Origin: Promethearchaeota archaeon
GTDB lineage: Archaea > Asgardarchaeota > Hermodarchaeia > Hermodarchaeales > Hermodarchaeaceae
NCBI GenBank assembly: GCA_048939625.1
Contig: JBHLPH010000028.1
Coordinates: 1-20,123 of the forward strand
Direction: 5' to 3'
Length of the DNA: 20,123 nt
In this document: positions 1-9,040 of the stretch, piece after piece
Position numbering within the stretch: the first letter of the stretch is position 1
Layout of the letters: each line of letters begins with the position of its first letter
Program-made: the position numbers and the translations under genes
The notes under the pieces: generated by a model
Told to the model about the DNA's origin: nothing
Databases searched by the model: none
Seen by the model: only the letters and a program-made list of their open reading frames with translations

Positions 1-1634
1 AAGTTGGAGATATCCGCTTTAGTCTGAGATAGATCGCTTTCAGCTTCAGTTAATCCAGTTATTTGTTCCTCTATTGAAGCTAGTTGTTCGGTGAGAGAGG
101 CTGCTCCTGCTTCGAGTTTTAAGTAATTCTGCTCAGCTGCCCGAAACGCGTCCAGTAGTTCTGTGGCATTCGGTTCATTGGGTATTTCTATTCCCTCAAG
201 AAGCGGGGAAGAGAGCGACCCAAACTGGGTTTGGATGTGCTCACAGTTCTGAGAGATTTGAATTGCTAAATTATCTTTACGCGTTCGTTGTTCTTGCAGC
301 TGTTCTTGGAATGCCTCTTTTGCTCGAAAATCAGCTATTTGCTCACCTAATTGCTCCTCTTTTGTCCGAAGTTGTTCTAATTTGGGTGCTGATTGCTTGT
401 ACCTGAGATAAACACGACTTAAGTAGAGTAAGAATGGAATGGCTGTAAGTATCAACACAATCCCAATAAGGAGATTAAAAAAGGCTGTTCCGATGCCTGC
501 GGCAGTGAGACCAATGGCTGGGATATAGAGTAGTGGTGAGAAAATCTGTTTCTGGCTTGCTTCAGCCTCCTGGCGTTGTGCTTTCACCCGCTCGTATTCA
601 ACCATGACATCATCAATCGGTGTCAGTCCCTCAAGTTGGCCTTCTAAGCCACTAATGGCTTCAGAAATCATTTGCTGTTTATCAAGGAGGGTTCGGAGCC
701 GATGTGAATTCTCCTGAAGAATTTTTACTGTTTTGGTATCCTCAGCTAGATGGTCTAACTGTTTTTGCTGTTTTTTGAGGCGCTTTTGCTGGGATTGGAG
801 TTTGGGGGCATTTGCGAGCTGTTTTATTAGCCGCTGCTTAGTTTCGGTTCGAAATGTGATTTCGCGTTGTAATTCCTCTTGTTTATCTTGAATCTCCTTG
901 TATGCTTTCACCGCAGTGTAACTTTTTTCTGTTTGAGCAAGAACCTGGCTCATTTCCTTTAGTTGTGCATCAAGCTGGGTTAGTTCTTCCTGCTTGATTT
1001 CCTTTTCTTCGGATTGTTTGAGGAAGTCTTCCTTGCGGCGTTGCAGTTGTTCTAAGGCGTTTCTTTCGGGATCTAACGCTTTTTTCATTGGTCGAAGTTC
1101 TAATGCAAGTTTCTCATCGGCTCGAGAGAAACATTCTCGACCCATCATAGCATTAATGACATGACGCCGTTCCATCTTGGGCATCTGGGCCAACCGATCT
1201 AAGTCCTTTTGCAGGACTACATTACTGGCAAGGAGGTCACTGAGTGTTATACCGTTAAGGAGGGAAGAGATCTCCTTATCAACTTCTTTTACACCGGTGG
1301 CCAATGTTGTGCTTTGACCAGAAGATCCAATTTTATGCAGAGTAGCGTGAGAAGGGCGTTTACGGTGGATTCTTCGTGTGATCCGATACTGTGTGTTTTC
1401 AAGTTCAAAATACAATTGAACAAGACATTGATCAGCATCATAATTGATTATCCGGTCTTTTTGTCCCATGGGCGCTTTATGGGTACGTCCAAAGAAGGCA
1501 AAGAGGATTGCTTCAAAAACGCTTGATTTTCCGGATTCGTTTGCTCCACTAACTGCCAGGATACCTACGGGGAATTTGATGTCCACATCGAGATGTTTGA
1601 AATCTTTGGTGATAAGTTGACGAAGAACGACCAT
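1..1634 (-). CDS. rad50: Rad50/SbcC-like SMC-family ATPase with an internal transmembrane hairpin (3' end truncated by window edge)
   Basis: Manual translation from ATG 1634 (1 nt after the mre11 stop) stays open to the window edge (544 aa): MVVLRQLITKDFKHLDVDIKFPVGILAVSGANESGKSSVFEAILFAFFG... It has a Walker A (GANESGKS), a Q-loop-like VVLQKDLD, then a long E/Q/K-rich coiled coil. It is the last gene of nurA-herA-mre11. Not in the supplied ORF track because there is no stop within the window. Confidence 0.93.
   Translation of the reverse strand, partial: MVVLRQLITKDFKHLDVDIKFPVGILAVSGANESGKSSVFEAILFAFFGRTHKAPMGQKDRIINYDADQCLVQLYFELENTQYRITRRIHRKRPSHATLHKIGSSGQSTTLATGVKEVDKEISSLLNGITLSDLLASNVVLQKDLDRLAQMPKMERRHVINAMMGRECFSRADEKLALELRPMKKALDPERNALEQLQRRKEDFLKQSEEKEIKQEELTQLDAQLKEMSQVLAQTEKSYTAVKAYKEIQDKQEELQREITFRTETKQRLIKQLANAPKLQSQQKRLKKQQKQLDHLAEDTKTVKILQENSHRLRTLLDKQQMISEAISGLEGQLEGLTPIDDVMVEYERVKAQRQEAEASQKQIFSPLLYIPAIGLTAAGIGTAFFNLLIGIVLILTAIPFLLYLSRVYLRYKQSAPKLEQLRTKEEQLGEQIADFRAKEAFQEQLQEQRTRKDNLAIQISQNCEHIQTQFGSLSSPLLEGIEIPNEPNATELLDAFRAAEQNYLKLEAGAASLTEQLASIEEQITGLTEAESDLSQTKADISN
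420..545 (-). other. Coding segment for a predicted two-helix transmembrane hairpin within Rad50 (aa ~364-405)
   Basis: Translates to IFSPLLYIPAIGLTAAGIGTAFFNLLIGIVLILTAIPFLLYL: 42 residues with no charged amino acid, flanked by ...EASQKQ and SRVYLRYKQ..., with coiled coil on both sides. Confidence 0.85.
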
Positions 1635-1635
1635 C

Positions 1636-2799
1636 TTACCACCCTCCTGATTCTTCGAGAAGCGTTATACCTTGCTCTAGGGCATTTTGCAGTAACTTCT
1701 TCTTCTTGGAATCCGTTTCTTGTTTGATTCGCTCGAGGACAAACTCTCGATATTCGGTCTTTGGTGGTTTCAGTTCTGCTTCAGGTATAAGAAAATCGGG
1801 ATCAGGGCTTACATATTCTAGGTCATCAATAATTTCGGTTGAAAAGCATTTGGCGAAGCCATGACGAACAACCTCGGTTCGTCGGTATAACTCAGCAGAT
1901 TTGATGGTCATAACCCCTTTCAGTCGAAAACGAAGTATCAGCTGGGGATTCCGTAGACGAGTTATTTCTTTGATAAGTAACTGGTTGATATTGGCATCTT
2001 TCGGAATTGCTACGTCGATGGTTTTCATAGGTCGGGTGGATACTGGAATTTGTTTGATTTCCTGTACGCCATCAGTGTCAACTTCGAGCCATACAAAGCC
2101 CTTCTTTTGGCTTTCTTCTGAAAAGGTAACATGCTCTGTACTTCCAGGGGTACAAATTGTCGTATTTCCTACCTTTTGCTTTTGGAATTCGTGGTTGTGT
2201 CCGGCAGCTAGATAGGTGAGTTTCTTAGGAACTGATTTGAGGAGAATATCAGGTTCATGTGGGAAGGTACCCCGAAGCCCTTCTACATTGTAGTGTGCAA
2301 GAAGGATGTTCACATCGCCTTTTCCAGGGATAGATAACTGGTAGAGAGGATCTTCAGTAGGAAGTAGCTGTGGATTAAATGACAACCCAGATATTTCCAC
2401 TTCGAGGTTATCGATATTTGTTGTGTTGGTTTGGATAGTTTCCCAATCTTGAAAGAAGTGAACGAAACCAGCACGGGCATATTCGAGTAAGGGGGCAACG
2501 CCATGTCGACGAGCCCGAGGAACATCATGATTGCCACTGATAATGTAGACGGGAATCTGTTTTTCGGAGAGCTTTCGAAAGGCTTCCATAACGTGAGCAC
2601 GGACTGGGTTGCGTGGGTTTAATCCATCAAAGAGGTCTCCGGAATGGAGAAAGAGGTCAGGTTTCTTTTCGAGAGCATAAGTAATAACAGAATCAAATGC
2701 CTTGAGAAAGTCCCGTTTCCGTTCATACCGTCGAGCCTGGAATTTTACGGCAGGGATGTCTAGATGGGTGTCTGATGTGTGGAGAATGGTAATAGGCAC
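1636..2799 (-). CDS. mre11: Mre11/SbcD-family (YhaO-like) DNA repair metallophosphoesterase nuclease
   Basis: Calcineurin-like motifs HTSDTHLD, SGDLFD, SGNHD, LLAH, AGHNH and PGS, plus a capping domain (ILRFRLKG). GTG start; lies between herA and rad50. Confidence 0.93.
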   Translation of the reverse strand: MPITILHTSDTHLDIPAVKFQARRYERKRDFLKAFDSVITYALEKKPDLFLHSGDLFDGLNPRNPVRAHVMEAFRKLSEKQIPVYIISGNHDVPRARRHGVAPLLEYARAGFVHFFQDWETIQTNTTNIDNLEVEISGLSFNPQLLPTEDPLYQLSIPGKGDVNILLAHYNVEGLRGTFPHEPDILLKSVPKKLTYLAAGHNHEFQKQKVGNTTICTPGSTEHVTFSEESQKKGFVWLEVDTDGVQEIKQIPVSTRPMKTIDVAIPKDANINQLLIKEITRLRNPQLILRFRLKGVMTIKSAELYRRTEVVRHGFAKCFSTEIIDDLEYVSPDPDFLIPEAELKPPKTEYREFVLERIKQETDSKKKKLLQNALEQGITLLEESGGW

Positions 2800-2805
2800 C
2801 GGTAA

Positions 2806-4437
2806 TCAGACCTCGGAGAATGCTCCCTTGAGCTTAGTTTCTTCTTTGCGTTCTTTGGCTAGTTTTTTGTCAATACCCGTAGCTTTTCGGGCTTTTTTAA
2901 GCCGCTCCACTACGTCGATATCAGCTCCGCCTTCCTTTGTTATTCGGGGTCGGACCTTCACCATGACCGGCGTCCTAGTTATATCACCGACAACAACGGC
3001 TTCTCCAACATTGAGACCAGGAAGATCTGAAATTAAATCTTCACTTAGACGTTCGGAGGATTGAGCAATAGCATTCTGATCGCGGGGATTTGTGATTTTG
3101 AGTACAATCTGGCTATTGCATTGACTCAGGCTGTCGGGATGGATTCGACCGGGTCGTTGGCTAATGAGAAGTAAGAAAATACCGAATTTTCGGCCTTCTT
3201 GGGCAATTCGACGGATAATGCGGGCAGAGTAAGTAAGGGTTTCAGGGGGGACGAAATTGTGAGCTTCTTCGACCACAATGAACACGGGATAAGCGAATTC
3301 ATCAGTGACAACAGCTTCGAAAACATCACGTAAAAGACGGCTGACGATATAATCCGTGCTGCGGTTTCCTAGCCCTGAGAGGTCTACGACCGACGCATGA
3401 TAGGGTTTAATGATGTTATTGATGGGAACGCCACTCCGTGAAAAGACACGAAGTCTTCGAAGACGTTGAATGTACTTAATTGCATTTCGAGCGCCAGCTC
3501 GCGTGTCCTTGTTCGCTTCCTCATCTTGAGCGACGGTGTTCAGCTCATTGATAATATCTTCCATTAGATAGACAACGTTTCGCTCTTTTAGACGATTTAA
3601 GGCTGCTTCGAGACCTGCACGGATGACCGTGAAGCTCTCACCAATAGCACAGATGTCGCAGAGTTCATCAAAATCTAAATCTGCAAGGCGCACTGTGTAT
3701 TCTTCCACTCGTCCGATATCTTTCTTACTATATCGACCTGTACTTTCGGGATTTTGGAAAACAGTAACATGGTCTGAAAAATCGTGTTTCGCCCCCGTTT
3801 CGGTTTGGCTTAGAAAAACGTAATCTGCGTGTGGATCAATAACGATAACAGTAGCGCCTCGTTGCATGAGTTCCTCGATGAGCACACCTGTGAGGTAACT
3901 TTTTCCTGCACCGGTCTGAGCGAGAATTGCTACATGGCGTCGGAACCCATTGATACGAATATTGACTGGAATTTGTGGGCGGGAAATTAGGTTTCCAATA
4001 TGGAGGCTAGCGTCGGGAGGATAGGCATAGAATTGTGCAAGAAGATGATCTGGTGCTATGTAAATTGGATTACCAGGTGTGACAGCCCGCCGGGGAAGAA
4101 GAATTCGAGGTGGGTGCCCCTTTTTGGTTGGGGTGAGATATCCAAGAACGCGGGCAACACCCCATGTTTTGACATCATCAATATGGGCTTCCTTGATTCG
4201 GGTGATAGCATCAAAATCGAGGTCCCGACGAAGGGCAAGGCTTTGGGAGGTAATACGTTCCACTTGGGCAAGTACTTGTACTTTTATTAGTGTACCTTCG
4301 ACGAGTTCTTCAGATTCAACCGTGAGATATTCGTATTTCTGTGGGTATCGTTTTCGTTCACTAGCAAAATAAAATTCGGTGGCTCTGGCTTCTTCAACAA
4401 TATAGCCGACCGGGTCACCATCACGTGATTCAGGCAT
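2806..4437 (-). CDS. herA: HerA bipolar DNA helicase/translocase
   Basis: N-terminal HAS-barrel-like region, Walker A RHVAILAQTGAGKSY, IDPH, Walker B VVEEAHNF, EGRKFG, SQRP and LPGLNVGEAVVVG. Overlaps the nurA stop by 8 nt. Confidence 0.95.
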   Translation of the reverse strand: MPESRDGDPVGYIVEEARATEFYFASERKRYPQKYEYLTVESEELVEGTLIKVQVLAQVERITSQSLALRRDLDFDAITRIKEAHIDDVKTWGVARVLGYLTPTKKGHPPRILLPRRAVTPGNPIYIAPDHLLAQFYAYPPDASLHIGNLISRPQIPVNIRINGFRRHVAILAQTGAGKSYLTGVLIEELMQRGATVIVIDPHADYVFLSQTETGAKHDFSDHVTVFQNPESTGRYSKKDIGRVEEYTVRLADLDFDELCDICAIGESFTVIRAGLEAALNRLKERNVVYLMEDIINELNTVAQDEEANKDTRAGARNAIKYIQRLRRLRVFSRSGVPINNIIKPYHASVVDLSGLGNRSTDYIVSRLLRDVFEAVVTDEFAYPVFIVVEEAHNFVPPETLTYSARIIRRIAQEGRKFGIFLLLISQRPGRIHPDSLSQCNSQIVLKITNPRDQNAIAQSSERLSEDLISDLPGLNVGEAVVVGDITRTPVMVKVRPRITKEGGADIDVVERLKKARKATGIDKKLAKERKEETKLKGAFSEV

Positions 4438-5767
4438 GACGAACCCTCCTTTCGCGACGTTTGAGTATTAATGGTATTTTCAACTCTTTTTCTATTAATG
4501 GTTCATACAATTTTCTTACATCACTCATGGGTAGACGGGCCTCCTGATCGGCTTTCACTAAATAGACATTATACAGCTCTAATCCCCCATACTCACCGCG
4601 CAAGGTTCCTAGGACTTCCTTGACCCGAGCGGGAGGTGGGTCGAGTAAGCGCGATGCTGCAATTTGGGAAATTCGGGTCGGGAGTCCGGCACTAAATGCA
4701 GGCATATCAATTCTCATTGGAGTATCGTTATACGCGAATTTCGCACAAAACGTCACAAATGTCGGAATTTGAAAGAAATTCTTCATTACAGGGATAGCCC
4801 ACTCCTCAAAGGCTTCCTCACGATCATAATCATTGTAGGCATCAACAAACCTCCGGCGGACATAAGCTGCCGGGTCTTTCGATTCGTATTTGAAGAGTGG
4901 AACATCCGGGTAAGGTTCAATTGGTGTTGTATAGCCAGCAGTTTTAGCCCATGCATAAATCAGCGAAAAATCGGGTCGTGGACGTCGAAGTTCATAAAGA
5001 AGATCCCAAACAAGATCATACTGGTTGCTACTAAGATCGAGCGCCTTTAAGATACTTCTAGCGGATAGCGATTGTTTCTTTTCAATATCGAAGAGCTGGT
5101 TCAATTGGTCGATTTTCGATGACGAGAGTGCAGGACTGAGATTCTTTATGATATCAGTCTTAAGGGACTCGAGTAGCATTCGTGTGAGGTGGCGTGCGAC
5201 CGAATCTTTACTAATGCCGAGAATCAGGATTTTTCGTTTCCGGCATTCTTCAAGGAGTTGCATAAAGGTCTGCAAATACCGGAGATACAAATCCCTTTCA
5301 CCAGGATAATTGAATGCAATTGGCACATGTGTAATTCGACCATACAAGGACCCATCAAGTAGCACTAAATCGACATCCGAAGTGTCTTGTACCGCCTGAA
5401 GTGCTACCTGATGTTCGATGTGTTCAGAACGAATACTTGCAAGGTCGATAAGTTGTTCACGGGGAGATGCAATCATGTGGGCATTTGAAGACAGTTGCCG
5501 GTAAGTCTGACCCCAAGAGGTGATAGCGCTTGCTCGGCAAATGTACATAAAGGAACCAAGAGCATATTCACGGGTTGAACGCCCACTATCCACAGCAATA
5601 ACTCGTAAATCGGATTTGAGTTCTGAAGGTAGGTCATGCCATTCTTGTTGAAAGGCCGTTTTCAAAAGTCCATCAAGTTCTGTAGATTCTTCACCTGTAA
5701 GTCGACGTCGAAAGGCATCACGTTTTTCCTGCAACTCGGTTAGGAATAAATCGAGAAAATGTGGCAT
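4430..5767 (-). CDS. nurA: NurA 5'-3' nuclease
   Basis: Motifs IAVDSG, LVLLDGSL, ILGISKDS, MRID and C-terminal YNVYLVKADQEARL; directly upstream of herA. ATG 5767 is preferred over GTG 5794. Confidence 0.9.
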   Translation of the reverse strand: MPHFLDLFLTELQEKRDAFRRRLTGEESTELDGLLKTAFQQEWHDLPSELKSDLRVIAVDSGRSTREYALGSFMYICRASAITSWGQTYRQLSSNAHMIASPREQLIDLASIRSEHIEHQVALQAVQDTSDVDLVLLDGSLYGRITHVPIAFNYPGERDLYLRYLQTFMQLLEECRKRKILILGISKDSVARHLTRMLLESLKTDIIKNLSPALSSSKIDQLNQLFDIEKKQSLSARSILKALDLSSNQYDLVWDLLYELRRPRPDFSLIYAWAKTAGYTTPIEPYPDVPLFKYESKDPAAYVRRRFVDAYNDYDREEAFEEWAIPVMKNFFQIPTFVTFCAKFAYNDTPMRIDMPAFSAGLPTRISQIAASRLLDPPPARVKEVLGTLRGEYGGLELYNVYLVKADQEARLPMSDVRKLYEPLIEKELKIPLILKRRERRVRHA

Positions 5768-5943
5768 AGACCGTCGCCCCACTGTCTGGTTCACAGATGC
5801 TGGATTGACGCCTTTAAACCTAACCCACGCAAGACGATAAGTTAACTAAAAGCAAATTACTTTGTAGCATTCGGATAATCCTATTAGCAGCCAAAACTTT
5901 ATTGGTGACATATATACCATCGGCTCACAATTGATTTGAAGAC

Positions 5944-6348
5944 GTGATGAAATTAATGCAGCTTGAACTAGTTTTTCTGTTACTGGTTGGAGTGCAACTA
6001 CTCAGTTTTTTTGTCGGGGTTGTTTTGCTATTTATTGCACTTTTCTTTGCTTCCCGAATCGTGACTAATCGTTTGGTGTCAATCAAAGAGGCGTTTATTG
6101 GTGCCCTTGCAACCCTGGTTATTTATCAAATCTGTGGATTAATTCTCTTCTTTGTGAATCCCAGCTATAGTGATCTAATCGCGCTCATCATTGCAGTAAT
6201 TGCCCTTACATTACTATTATACAAATACATCGATATTGGAATTTTCAGCAGTGTTGCCCTTGTCATGCTCTGTTTAGCCATTTTACTTGCTATCCAAGTA
6301 TTTGAAACTGTCATCGGTTACATTTTCTTTGTCCCTCTCCCGGGATAA
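5944..6348 (+). CDS. Small multi-pass membrane protein (about 4 TM), paralog 1
   Basis: 134-aa, almost entirely hydrophobic ORF with short polar loops (SRIVTNRLVSIKEA; YKYIDIG). The start could be 5944, 5947 or 5956. Confidence 0.75.
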   Translation: MMKLMQLELVFLLLVGVQLLSFFVGVVLLFIALFFASRIVTNRLVSIKEAFIGALATLVIYQICGLILFFVNPSYSDLIALIIAVIALTLLLYKYIDIGIFSSVALVMLCLAILLAIQVFETVIGYIFFVPLPG

Positions 6349-6458
6349 CAAAAGCCAGGCAACAAGGACTGCTCCTAGTAAAATTTTGCATTGGCAACGA
6401 AACTATAAAGGGAAGGAATTGGCTACTGGTAATAACCACCAAAAAGGTGACTACAACC

Positions 6459-6878
6459 ATGCTTATCCCTGAATTAATTTTCGCGGGTATTTCATTTCTC
6501 ATCATTTGGATATTTGGTTCGATCATCCTCTGGTTAGCAGGAAAAGTCGTATCCGGTTACAACGCTAAATTCACTGATGCTCTGTGGATTTCACTCATTG
6601 GCGCTATCATTCAAACGTTACTTGGTTTGGCAATGACCTTCTTCGTAATTCCACTGCTTCCCGCAGGATTACTCGGTCTTATTCTAGGAACAGTAGTACC
6701 ACTAATCATTGTTCTAATCGTCTACATCTGGCTGATCATGCATTTCTTTGATACGGGATTCCTTGGAGCCTTGGCTGTCGGAATACTGTATTTCATATTC
6801 ATGATCATCATCGGCATCGTCCTAATAATAATTGGTGCGATTCTCCTAGTATTCCTCATTATGATATTTGGTCCTTAG
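6459..6878 (+). CDS. Small multi-pass membrane protein (about 4 TM), paralog 2
   Basis: Hydrophobic ORF with loops AGKVVSGYNAKFTDA and MHFFDTG that match the upstream paralog. ATG 6459 follows a GGTGA SD-like motif; the ORF track start is GTG 6447. Confidence 0.8.
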   Translation: MLIPELIFAGISFLIIWIFGSIILWLAGKVVSGYNAKFTDALWISLIGAIIQTLLGLAMTFFVIPLLPAGLLGLILGTVVPLIIVLIVYIWLIMHFFDTGFLGALAVGILYFIFMIIIGIVLIIIGAILLVFLIMIFGP

Positions 6879-6955: not shown

Positions 6956-7672
6956 CTAAGGAGGTTTTGTGGCAAGTATCCAGAAGATGGGTGTATAGAT
7001 TATCTTGGGTAACACCCATTCAACACCTTTTTCTTGAAGCAGGAGAGCTTCGGAATGAATCTCTGCACATATTGTTGGGAGATCAAAATTCCAAGATAAT
7101 ATTCCGAATCGGATTGATTGAAATGCTAATTCCTGTAATTCTCCAGGAAGATGGCCCCCAGTGAATGGATCAGCACCAAGCCTTGTTAGCGTTGTTACAA
7201 TAGGATATGGGGGTTTCGGAGTGCTACTTGAACCCCTTTCGTATATTTCAATTCTACCCGCATAATCAGGTTCAATACAAGCTAAAGTCCCATGTGGAGA
7301 GAGCACGTCATGAAGTTCCTGCAGAGCCTTTATTCTTTCAGCAATCCACATTATTGTAAAATGGCACAAGGCGAAATCTGCTGTTGCACCTTGGAATGGG
7401 AGAGCAGTCGCATCTGCGAGAAGATAATGCACGTTTTGATTTTTAGACGCAGTTGATAATCCTGAGCGAATTAACTGTTGATTAATGTCAAAGCCGATTA
7501 CAGTGCTATGGGAAATGGTTTCTGCTATCTCGGGAGTGATAGGTCCCGCACCACAACCAACGTCTAAGCAAATGGGGGCATGTGTCCACCTAGCTTGTTG
7601 GTAGAAAAACTGGCGCGTGGGTGCGGTACGCTCAGCTTGGTCGCAAAGGAATTCTTGAGTATAGGGTTGCAC
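6956..7672 (-). CDS. Class I SAM-dependent methyltransferase
   Basis: Motif I CLDVGCGAG, GFDIN, ADATALPF, and VLSPHG followed by IEPDY; 39 nt downstream of the radical SAM gene on the same strand. Confidence 0.88.
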   Translation of the reverse strand: MQPYTQEFLCDQAERTAPTRQFFYQQARWTHAPICLDVGCGAGPITPEIAETISHSTVIGFDINQQLIRSGLSTASKNQNVHYLLADATALPFQGATADFALCHFTIMWIAERIKALQELHDVLSPHGTLACIEPDYAGRIEIYERGSSSTPKPPYPIVTTLTRLGADPFTGGHLPGELQELAFQSIRFGILSWNFDLPTICAEIHSEALLLQEKGVEWVLPKIIYTPIFWILATKPP

Positions 7673-7711
7673 CAGTGTGTGCCTCCCAACAGGAGATTTA
7701 GGTAGAGTATT

Positions 7712-9040
7712 TTAGCCACCAATGTTGTGATGGCAACATACTTCCTTGTATTCGGTGAAGAGTGGACAACCGCCTCCACACGCTTTGAGTAGTTCACAGG
7801 AAATGCATTGGTCTTGGAGTTTTTTATGTCCGCGAAGGGCTTTTGCGGTTGGGTGATTCCATATAGTATTCCAAGAATCGGTGAGAATATTTCCTAGCGG
7901 TTCAAAGTAGCTTTGGCAGGGAAGAACGGCACCATTGGGTTCAATTGCGAGACTGGAATATGCCGCACTGCACCGACGAGGACCGAGACCATATTCGGTG
8001 GGATCGAAATGGCAATACATTGTGGGACTGTACCAAATCATGCGGATGTCATGTTCTGCTGCTTCGGCGAGAATATCGGTGATTATTTCATCAAGATCCT
8101 GTTCAGGGATGGCTTGTTCATCTGCTACCTCTTTGCCACTTCCCGAGTAGATGAGCCCGTTCATAGCAAACTGTTGCTGTCCAAGCTTAGCTAGGAAGGC
8201 TACGGTTTCGGTTATCCTTGGACGGTTAAGTTGAGTTAGGGTTGTATTTGTGATGGTATAAATGTCAGTGGCAATGAACCGTTTGAGTCCAGCCAAGGTT
8301 TCCTCCCAGGCTCCTTTGATTCCAACCATTTGGTCATGAATTTCGGGAAGATGAGACTCCAAGGTAATTTGAACATAATCAATTCCTGCTTTAACTAGGT
8401 CATCAACCAAGGAGTTGGTAAGGCGTCGTCCATTCGTAACGAGCCCTGCAATGATTCCAATGTCTTCGGCATATTGAACAAGTTCCACCAAATCATCGCG
8501 AAGTGTAGGTTCACCGCCTGTGAAGGTTACATGAGGAATCGCCTGGTCAAGAAGCACATCAAGAACTTTTTTCCATTTAGCTGTCTCAATTTCGTGGCTA
8601 GCATCCCATCCACGACGCTTTGCAGGAACATAACAGTGAGAGCAGGTATTATTACACCGATACGTGAGGGCTAAATCGACCCGATAAGGAGCCGATGGTT
8701 CATGCGAAAAGGGTTCCACTTCACCAAAATCAAAGGTTTCAATCGGTGACACATCTGGTTGGACAATGAAAGAGAGAATTTTGTCTTTTAACTCATTGTA
8801 GTGCGAACGAATAGTGTCAGAGTTGGTTCCCCGGTACTTGGTACGGATAAAATCAATGATTTCATCCTCAGATTTTCCTTCGACTGCTGCTATGGCATAA
8901 TCATACCCACTTTCATTAAGAAAGAGGAGGCGTGAGGCATCAACAACAATGGTGCCACCAGTAGGGTCTTTTCGGAGGTGGAATCGGTGGCCTTCTAATT
9001 CGCCTTTACCGAATAGGATTTTGCTTCTTTCTGTCTCCAT
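7712..9040 (-). CDS. Radical SAM/SPASM-domain protein with N-terminal PqqD/RRE-like region (PqqE-like architecture)
   Basis: CxxxCxxC motif (CNNTCSHC), FTGGEPTL, TNG; SPASM cysteines CSAA...GAVLPC...LGNI...CISC...CGGGCP. The ~100-aa N-terminal extension has beta strands, LNESG and then helices. Confidence 0.92.
   Translation of the reverse strand: METERSKILFGKGELEGHRFHLRKDPTGGTIVVDASRLLFLNESGYDYAIAAVEGKSEDEIIDFIRTKYRGTNSDTIRSHYNELKDKILSFIVQPDVSPIETFDFGEVEPFSHEPSAPYRVDLALTYRCNNTCSHCYVPAKRRGWDASHEIETAKWKKVLDVLLDQAIPHVTFTGGEPTLRDDLVELVQYAEDIGIIAGLVTNGRRLTNSLVDDLVKAGIDYVQITLESHLPEIHDQMVGIKGAWEETLAGLKRFIATDIYTITNTTLTQLNRPRITETVAFLAKLGQQQFAMNGLIYSGSGKEVADEQAIPEQDLDEIITDILAEAAEHDIRMIWYSPTMYCHFDPTEYGLGPRRCSAAYSSLAIEPNGAVLPCQSYFEPLGNILTDSWNTIWNHPTAKALRGHKKLQDQCISCELLKACGGGCPLFTEYKEVCCHHNIGG

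Follow-up and report, generated by a model that had tools for sequence, protein, structure and literature searches.

A Rad50-type ATPase with a hydrophobic, putatively membrane-inserted hairpin in place of the zinc hook in a Hermodarchaeota end-resection operon

Results

The nurA-herA-mre11-rad50 operon

We analyzed a stretch of DNA of 20,123 nucleotides (nt), referred to here as the window, which is contig JBHLPH010000028.1 (contig C23 below) of assembly GCA_048939625.1 from a Promethearchaeota archaeon of the family Hermodarchaeaceae. Four adjacent and co-oriented genes on the minus strand, with rad50 last, encode a NurA nuclease, a HerA helicase, an Mre11-type nuclease and a Rad50-type ATPase. 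The Rad50 protein carries no CXXC zinc hook, and at the apex of its coiled coil, where the hook would be expected, it has a charge-free hydrophobic stretch that is predicted to form a membrane-inserted hairpin. A preliminary description made from the letters of the window had proposed such an anchor within a full nurA-herA-mre11-rad50 operon, and the operon is indeed complete, with all four genes identified (aa, amino acids):

4430..5794, minus strand: NurA nuclease, 454 aa; PF09376 NurA E 5.9e-19, above the cut-off
2806..4437, minus strand: HerA helicase, 543 aa; DUF87/HerA central domain E 6.9e-40, NCBIfam helicase_HerA E 5e-70
1636..2799, minus strand: Mre11-type nuclease, 387 aa; Metallophos E 4e-17, NCBIfam Mre11_Sulfo E 9.4e-30; DxH, GDxxD, GNHD and GHNH motifs intact
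3..1634, minus strand: 5′ part of the rad50-like open reading frame (ORF), aa 1-544 of 788; AAA_23 E 1.3e-18; 3′ end open
Contig C45, L003:9192-9926, minus strand: remainder of rad50, 244 aa; the frame continues past the join

We conclude that these four genes are the classic archaeal end-resection operon. The four-gene order is repeated in relatives (loci L020-L023), and the linkage of Mre11 to rad50 is retained in all full loci examined.

The rad50 gene runs off the edge of the window. The genome is a metagenome-assembled one of 83 contigs, 87.6% complete and with 6.3% contamination, and the first 77 nt of the window exactly match the final 77 nt of contig C45, where the rad50 reading frame runs on (L003:9192-10001, minus strand) to give a joined protein of 788 aa. 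An independent 4.8-kb database contig encodes a protein, P0003, that exactly equals residues 150-788 of the joined protein. Past the join on C45 come a GNAT acetyltransferase gene, which is on the opposite strand, and then ORFs of 456 and 176 aa that have no family; the genes there resemble those downstream of rad50 in a relative. Because P0003 equals residues 150-788 and the downstream genes mirror those of a relative, we accept the joined order as real, and the rad50 gene that spans the C23/C45 join is genuine. Its length lies within the 750-800 aa that the preliminary description had predicted.

The protein is a Rad50-type ATPase without a zinc hook

The portion of rad50 in the window contains the following features:

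1524..1547, minus strand: Walker A motif (P-loop) GANESGKS, aa 30-37; G30, G35, K36 and S37 invariant in 28 homologs
546..1139, minus strand: N-terminal coiled-coil arm, aa 166-363; helices 166-273, 276-292, 296-335 and 341-362 in the P0004 model (see below), 38% charged residues
477..545, minus strand: first half of the hairpin, aa 364-386; Gly/Pro/Ala-rich, family motif SPxxYIPSIG, P367, Y370, S373 and I374 invariant
474-476, minus strand: hairpin turn, a single Asn, aa 387
420..473, minus strand: second half of the hairpin, aa 388-405; strongly hydrophobic, 19-residue Kyte-Doolittle hydropathy (KD19) up to 2.58, P400, F401 and L405 invariant
396..419, minus strand: basic cluster SRVYLRYK, aa 406-413, directly after the hairpin
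3..419, minus strand: visible part of the C-terminal coiled-coil arm, aa 406-544; AlphaFold2 helices 399-471 and 490-550

In addition to the Walker A motif, the Q-loop (Q142), the SGG signature (697-699), Walker B (731-732) and the H-loop (H765) are present and invariant in the same 28 homologs. Pfam matches of the window protein are AAA_23 (E 1.3e-18) and SMC_N, and the solved structures matched by sequence are archaeal and Thermotoga Rad50 heads, with Methanocaldococcus jannaschii Rad50 first at E 2.2e-16. The best NCBIfam matches are the archaeal Rad50 equivalogs (E 4e-33; NF003034), whose cut-off of 700 bits is not reached by the score of 114 bits because the heads alone match and the arms do not.

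An AlphaFold2 model was built on the family alignment for the full-length homolog P0004, which is 66% identical to the window protein (mean predicted local distance difference test score, pLDDT, 79). The model has a Rad50-type head and a long antiparallel coiled coil. Foldseek places Rad50 of Chaetomium (C. thermophilum) first (E 2e-22) and finds archaeal Rad50 heads at a target-normalized TM-score of 0.65-0.78. The protein thus has the split ABC-ATPase head around a long antiparallel coiled coil by which Rad50/SbcC proteins are recognized. The N-terminal arm measures about 198 aa and the C-terminal arm about 235-259 aa, the latter with two non-helical breaks in the AlphaFold2 model. Within the 544 residues encoded in the window the only cysteines are C70, C168 and C464, and no CXXC occurs in the full 788-aa joined protein, so that the absence noted in the visible part also holds beyond the window edge. 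We conclude that the protein is an intact, conserved Rad50-type ATPase without a zinc hook.

A charge-free hydrophobic hairpin occupies the apex

Residues 364-405 (nt 545-420) comprise 42 residues without D, E, K, R, H or Q, in which the sole strongly polar residue is Asn 387. This stretch, the SRVYLRYK cluster that follows it and the three isolated cysteines had all been read from the window before, and each was reproduced. The stretch is centered at 0.49 of the 788-aa length, as would be required of a hairpin at the midpoint. When the protein was shuffled 5000 times, the longest run free of D, E, K, R, H and Q averaged 12.4 aa and never exceeded 28 aa; in the actual protein it reaches 43 aa, and because the run exceeds the shuffle maximum the charge-free stretch is not due to chance. 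In the 20 aa that follow the hairpin there are 6 K/R and 1 D/E.

In the P0004 model the apex consists of two short helices, 370-383 and 388-396, the second continuing into the C-terminal arm (pLDDT 56-80). Insertion energies were estimated on an approximate Hessa-type scale, and family values were computed on alignment columns. By this estimate, insertion of the second half of the hairpin as a full span is favorable, at about -1.8 to -2.0 kcal/mol, and outside the hairpin no window of the protein scores under +7.7. Since the coiled coil is antiparallel, an even number of membrane passes is required. About 40 uncharged residues, two helices, a short turn and net-positive flanks fit the pattern of a two-pass hairpin. 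A complex prediction with two copies of residues 325-445 and the family alignment returned a score of 0.00; it was run with no controls and weighs neither for nor against pairing of apexes.

Hairpin-type Rad50 in Hermodarchaeota and other Asgard archaea

A word-indexed search of 5.8 billion proteins returned about 50 homologs with 42-77% identity, nearly all of 785-791 aa, with names that suggest Asgard metagenome-assembled genomes. The hydrophobic stretch, which the preliminary description had expected in close homologs, is at the same position in all of them, and CXXC is found in none. In the next tier of matches, 789-aa bacterial SbcC proteins with 26-33% identity, CXXC invariably lies near residue 408 and the hydrophobic window is missing. 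Within the family the apex follows the motif SPxxYIPSIG...N...SIPFxxYL.

The family profile was compared with 301 genomes of the Asgard phylum. All sister genomes in the window's family (18/18) carry full-length hairpin-type Rad50, and scattered cases occur in at least 4 other Asgard families. When a hook-type Asgard Rad50 was used as the query against the 19 genomes of the window's family, only the hairpin-type gene and one SMC-like ORF were recovered. A scan of the window genome with the zinc-hook model PF04423 gave nothing above the cut-off, but this model is insensitive, as only 3/14 control genomes exceed the cut-off; the absence of a hook was therefore judged by inspection for CXXC and by the hook-type Asgard query. 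The check for a hook-type Rad50 elsewhere in the genome, proposed in the preliminary description, found none in the window genome or in the 18 sisters. The Hermodarchaeota family thus appears to lack any hook-type Rad50, with the hairpin type as its sole Rad50.

Two further proteins of the window genome match AAA_23, a true SMC with a hinge (contig C12) and a 965-aa SMC_N protein (contig C31; L073:336-3233, plus strand). The latter, an SMC_N/AAA_23 protein, has no SMC hinge match and sits on a very long branch of the tree described below. It was considered as a hidden hook-type Rad50 and rejected: it does not match the family profile at E <= 1e-5, it groups with the SMC outgroup and it has no neighboring Mre11.

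Other Asgard lineages gave head-only matches to the profile, and 14 loci were extracted. In 12 of the 14 the proteins are 697-731, 864-872 or 934-965 aa long, with a CXXC placed exactly at the midpoint and no hydrophobic segment in its vicinity. They are hook-type Rad50 proteins of the ordinary kind, mostly in HerA-Mre11-Rad50 clusters. The other two loci encode a short Rad50-like form. Outside the window's family, four genomes (G142, G029, G097 and G207; loci L075-L083) hold both a hook-type and a hairpin-type Mre11-Rad50 module. In these genomes the Mre11 beside the hairpin type matches the window Mre11 at E 1e-50 to 1e-82, whereas the Mre11 beside the hook type does so at 1e-12 to 1e-16, a contrast which indicates that these are two paralogous modules, each with an Mre11 and a Rad50 that co-evolved. 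In two of the four (G029 and G142) a HerA gene can be seen next to the hairpin-type module. In a further genome, G034, the hairpin type is the only Rad50 found.

The short form is a third Rad50-like ATPase, of 428-441 aa, seen in Asgard family f6 and lacking both CXXC and a hydrophobic apex. It occurs at L051, L052, L055 and L066 (genomes G145, G211, G005 and G075, respectively) with SMC_N/AAA_23 matches, and the copy at L055 scores 30.7 bits on AAA_27. Each copy is immediately preceded by an Mre11-like gene of its own, and HerA was not seen in the flanking sequence. On the heads-only tree the four copies make up a separate clade with full support.

The hairpin type forms a clade across archaea and bacteria

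An exhaustive HMMER search of 1.84 billion cluster representatives gave 821 matches at E <= 1e-30. Among the best 150 of these 821, none has CXXC, and 140 of the 145 that are near full length (570-1392 aa) have a hydrophobic island. The island has a median of 41 aa (mostly 35-50) and its center lies at 0.49 of the protein, and the two 15-residue flanks each average about +1.8 net charge. What this wider clade conserves at the apex is hydrophobicity, length and flank charge, and not sequence. A two-pass hairpin that faces lipid and keeps its two ends in the cytoplasm would be expected to show such a pattern of length and charge.

Among the named members are the protein annotated as Rad50 in Thermofilum adornatum (WP_052886925.1), which is in culture, and proteins of Dictyoglomus turgidum, Chloroflexi, Anaerolineales and Blastocatellia, and a scan of species-representative genomes added loci from Bathyarchaeia, Nitrososphaerales/Thaumarchaeota, Thorarchaeota and Heimdallarchaeota. 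All of the scanned loci that cover the middle of the gene have a hydrophobic apex at the midpoint and none has CXXC; in every case where upstream sequence is available, an Mre11 gene lies directly upstream.

A maximum-likelihood tree was computed from a MAFFT alignment of the two directly excised head segments, leaving out the arms and the apex. A single branch with a Shimodaira-Hasegawa-like approximate likelihood ratio test (SH-aLRT) value of 99 sets all 27 hairpin-type proteins apart from the Asgard and bacterial hook types. The hairpin representatives in the tree were the top matches of a hairpin-built profile, and the tree thus shows a coherent lineage, not an unbiased sample. Judged from these sequences, the hairpin apex is not peculiar to the window gene and defines a large clade across archaea and bacteria, a feature which the current annotations (Rad50, SbcC, AAA family ATPase) hide.

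Comparison with known systems

Canonical archaeal Rad50, as in Pyrococcus furiosus, M. jannaschii and the Sulfolobales, has the same four-gene operon, split head, long antiparallel coiled coil and adjacent Mre11, and provides the best sequence and fold matches of the window protein. Every defining feature is shared except for the CXXC hook, in place of which the window protein has a hydrophobic hairpin of about 42 aa at its apex. Hook-type Asgard Rad50 comes from the same phylum, has the HerA-Mre11-Rad50 order and is of comparable length, but unlike the window protein it has a midpoint CXXC and no near-apex hydrophobic window above KD 1.6. The partners differ as well: Mre11 proteins of hook-type Asgard Rad50 match the window Mre11 at E 1e-7 to 1e-21, as compared to 1e-50 to 1e-96 for the partners of hairpin types from outside Hermodarchaeota. 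SMC proper (condensin-type) shares SMC_N-type heads and a long coiled coil with the window protein; its apex, however, is a globular hinge (PF06470; E 9e-35 for the genome's own on C12), for which the window Rad50 has no match.

The closest studied analogue is SbcE (YhaN) of Bacillus subtilis, an SbcC-like protein without CxxC that is paired with the SbcD/Mre11-like nuclease SbcF (YhaO) (Krishnamurthy et al. 2009/2010, PMC2811018). Its conserved central domain has many hydrophobic residues and a conserved proline and, expressed by itself, proved entirely insoluble (PMC2811018). SbcE aids double-strand-break repair as well as transformation, and in competent cells it collects in polar foci; the paper never terms the central domain transmembrane (PMC2811018). 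The window protein shares the missing CxxC, the hydrophobic central domain between the arms and the SbcD-like partner; the yhaO-yhaN-yhaM context, unlike the window operon, contains neither NurA nor HerA. On the Pfam model of the SbcE/YhaN family, AAA_27 (PF13514), the window protein scores 19.4 bits (E 8.5e-4), under the gathering cut-off of 22, and clade relatives score 20-33 bits, with 7/9 of those sampled at or above the cut-off. No Bacillota proteins occur among the named members of the nearest 150 representatives. The window protein resembles SbcE as described in the paper but is at most a candidate member of the SbcE family.

Our literature search turned up no report of an archaeal Rad50, or of a NurA-HerA-Mre11-Rad50 system, with a transmembrane or hydrophobic apex, and no later work on SbcE/SbcF. 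A 2026 review of NurA with a section on Asgard archaea describes Asgard resection proteins as uncharacterized and leaves membranes unmentioned. We conclude that the hairpin-apex Rad50 is genuine and widespread and has in effect gone undescribed; the window gene is one carrier among many, and no new category of system is involved.

Discussion

We propose that the window protein is the Rad50 subunit of a NurA-HerA-Mre11-Rad50 end-processing machine and belongs to a distinct paralogous branch in which the hook is replaced by a charge-free, predicted membrane-inserted hairpin of about 41 residues. We consider this reading probable, at roughly 0.7. Under this proposal the hairpin would insert in the cytoplasmic membrane with a one-residue outer turn and both Rad50 arms would stay cytoplasmic. 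Coiled coils rise by about 0.15 nm per residue, and the Mre11-Rad50 head would hang below the membrane on an arm of about 200 residues, or roughly 29 nm. Instead of zinc, the bilayer that confines the two apexes and the lateral packing of their helices could keep them paired. Gly/Ala/Ser-rich helices, like the first helix of the hairpin, are of the kind that packs closely. In Hermodarchaeota the complex would carry out housekeeping processing of double-strand-break ends, since the hairpin type is the sole Rad50 there and presumably performs general break processing. Where both Rad50 types coexist, a division of labor is likely, possibly with a membrane-proximal role for the hairpin type.

Several points weigh against the proposed membrane hairpin. 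The first half of the hairpin is marginal on the insertion scale, at +2.5 to +3 kcal/mol with a family median of +1.75, and AlphaFold2 models the first apex helix with 14 residues only, at pLDDT 56-71. This half may depend on the second helix for insertion, or it may span the membrane incompletely. The invariant apex residues of the Hermodarchaeota family (P367, Y370, S373, I374, P400, F401 and L405) exceed what a plain anchor needs and could indicate a protein-protein interface. As for the sole-Rad50 argument, the window genome is 87.6% complete and its own lack of a hook type is weak evidence, so that the 18 sisters (72-91% complete) carry most of the weight. Of the in-and-out anchor put forward in the preliminary description, the second half is clearly transmembrane-like and the Gly/Pro-rich first half is marginal, and insertion is thus a prediction. 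We infer membrane insertion, apex pairing and the cellular role from the features described above; the accompanying ideas of membrane-localized resection and interception of incoming DNA are inferred in the same way. The in-silico checks by which the preliminary description could have been refuted all favored it, and the earlier interpretation as a whole is partly supported.

Two alternatives concern the hairpin itself. It might lie outside the membrane as a buried hydrophobic core, for example a four-helix bundle of two apexes or a contact with another protein, and so form a zinc-free, soluble dimerization module. The invariant apex residues within the Hermodarchaeota family, the marginal hydrophobicity of the first half and the moderate pLDDT of the apex all suit such a core. 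Nevertheless, the wider clade keeps hydrophobicity, a length of about 41 aa and basic flanks but not sequence, which is the signature of a lipid-facing anchor; 42 uncharged residues with KD19 up to 2.6 are unusual for a soluble protein, with no other window in the protein near that value, and the central domain of B. subtilis SbcE is insoluble (PMC2811018). We regard a soluble module as improbable. Slightly better placed, and still quite unlikely, is a monotopic or re-entrant anchor that enters only the cytoplasmic leaflet of the bilayer and would still tether the complex. A short first helix (14 residues in the model) that is rich in Gly and Pro, a turn of a single Asn with no extracellular loop, and conserved prolines near both cytoplasmic ends would be in keeping with it, but the island of about 35-50 aa across 140 representatives suffices for two full spans and the second half has a favorable estimated energy as one of them.

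A different question is which DNA the complex acts on. The same architecture could serve a specialized role at the envelope, mainly on DNA that enters or is transferred, on viral genomes or in DNA uptake, and less at chromosomal breaks. The four genomes that hold both Rad50 types, each with its co-evolved Mre11, suggest a division of labor, and SbcE of B. subtilis, which has an effect on transformation, accumulates at the cell pole during competence (PMC2811018). We consider this role rather unlikely. The hairpin type is the only Rad50 found in 19/19 Hermodarchaeota genomes and in G034 and probably covers chromosomal repair there, and no defense or DNA-uptake genes are evident beside the operon. 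Finally, a gene split over two contigs of a metagenome-assembled genome with contamination invites the suspicion of a mis-join, an assembly chimera or a decaying pseudogene. The overlap is exactly 77 nt and in frame, the independent contig encodes residues 150-788 identically, and dozens of intact homologs of 785-791 aa with invariant catalytic motifs occur in the same operon, and we consider an artifact to be effectively refuted.

The purpose of the zinc hook and the long coiled coils of Rad50 is a long-standing question in double-strand-break repair. Here, a large natural clade has dispensed with the hook and carries a membrane-type hairpin in its place, as the sole Rad50 in one Asgard lineage and beside a hook-type paralogue with its own Mre11 in others. 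If the hairpin is truly in the membrane, then apex dimerization by zinc would be dispensable when apexes are confined to two dimensions, end resection could be organized at the cell envelope, and the little-studied bacterial SbcE/SbcF would gain a structural rationale. Confinement in the bilayer would then be a natural substitute for the hook, and the clade a natural experiment on the role of the hook and the long arms. Cultured carriers (Thermofilum adornatum and Dictyoglomus), and B. subtilis as an analogue, make the idea testable. A broader version, in which the hairpin-apex Rad50 is an ancient second Rad50 branch of Asgard archaea, TACK-type archaea and several bacterial phyla that works embedded in the membrane, so that all end processing in Hermodarchaeota would be membrane-tethered, is tentative, and we hold the odds to be slightly against it.

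Neighboring genes

Directly downstream of hairpin-type rad50, remnants of IS605-type OrfB and helix-turn-helix (HTH) genes were seen in two relatives (L021 10462-10758 and L022 10462-11418) and are absent from this position in the window genome. The two ORFs past the join on C45 (L003:6775-8145, minus strand, 456 aa, and L003:6245-6775, minus strand, 176 aa) have no Pfam family. Counterparts of this pair lie downstream of hairpin-type rad50 in other Hermodarchaeota (L020 11739-13616 and L023 7776-9618), and they could be partners of rad50 or merely conserved neighbors.

On the other side of the operon, two ORFs without a Pfam family are divergent from nurA (5944-6348, plus strand, 134 aa, and 6447-6878, plus strand, 143 aa), and similar-sized ORFs hold this position in L020-L022. 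Beyond them, a radical SAM/SPASM enzyme and a class I methyltransferase (6956-9040, minus strand) adjoin the operon. This pair is also adjacent in L020-L022, which indicates that the neighborhood is conserved within the family.

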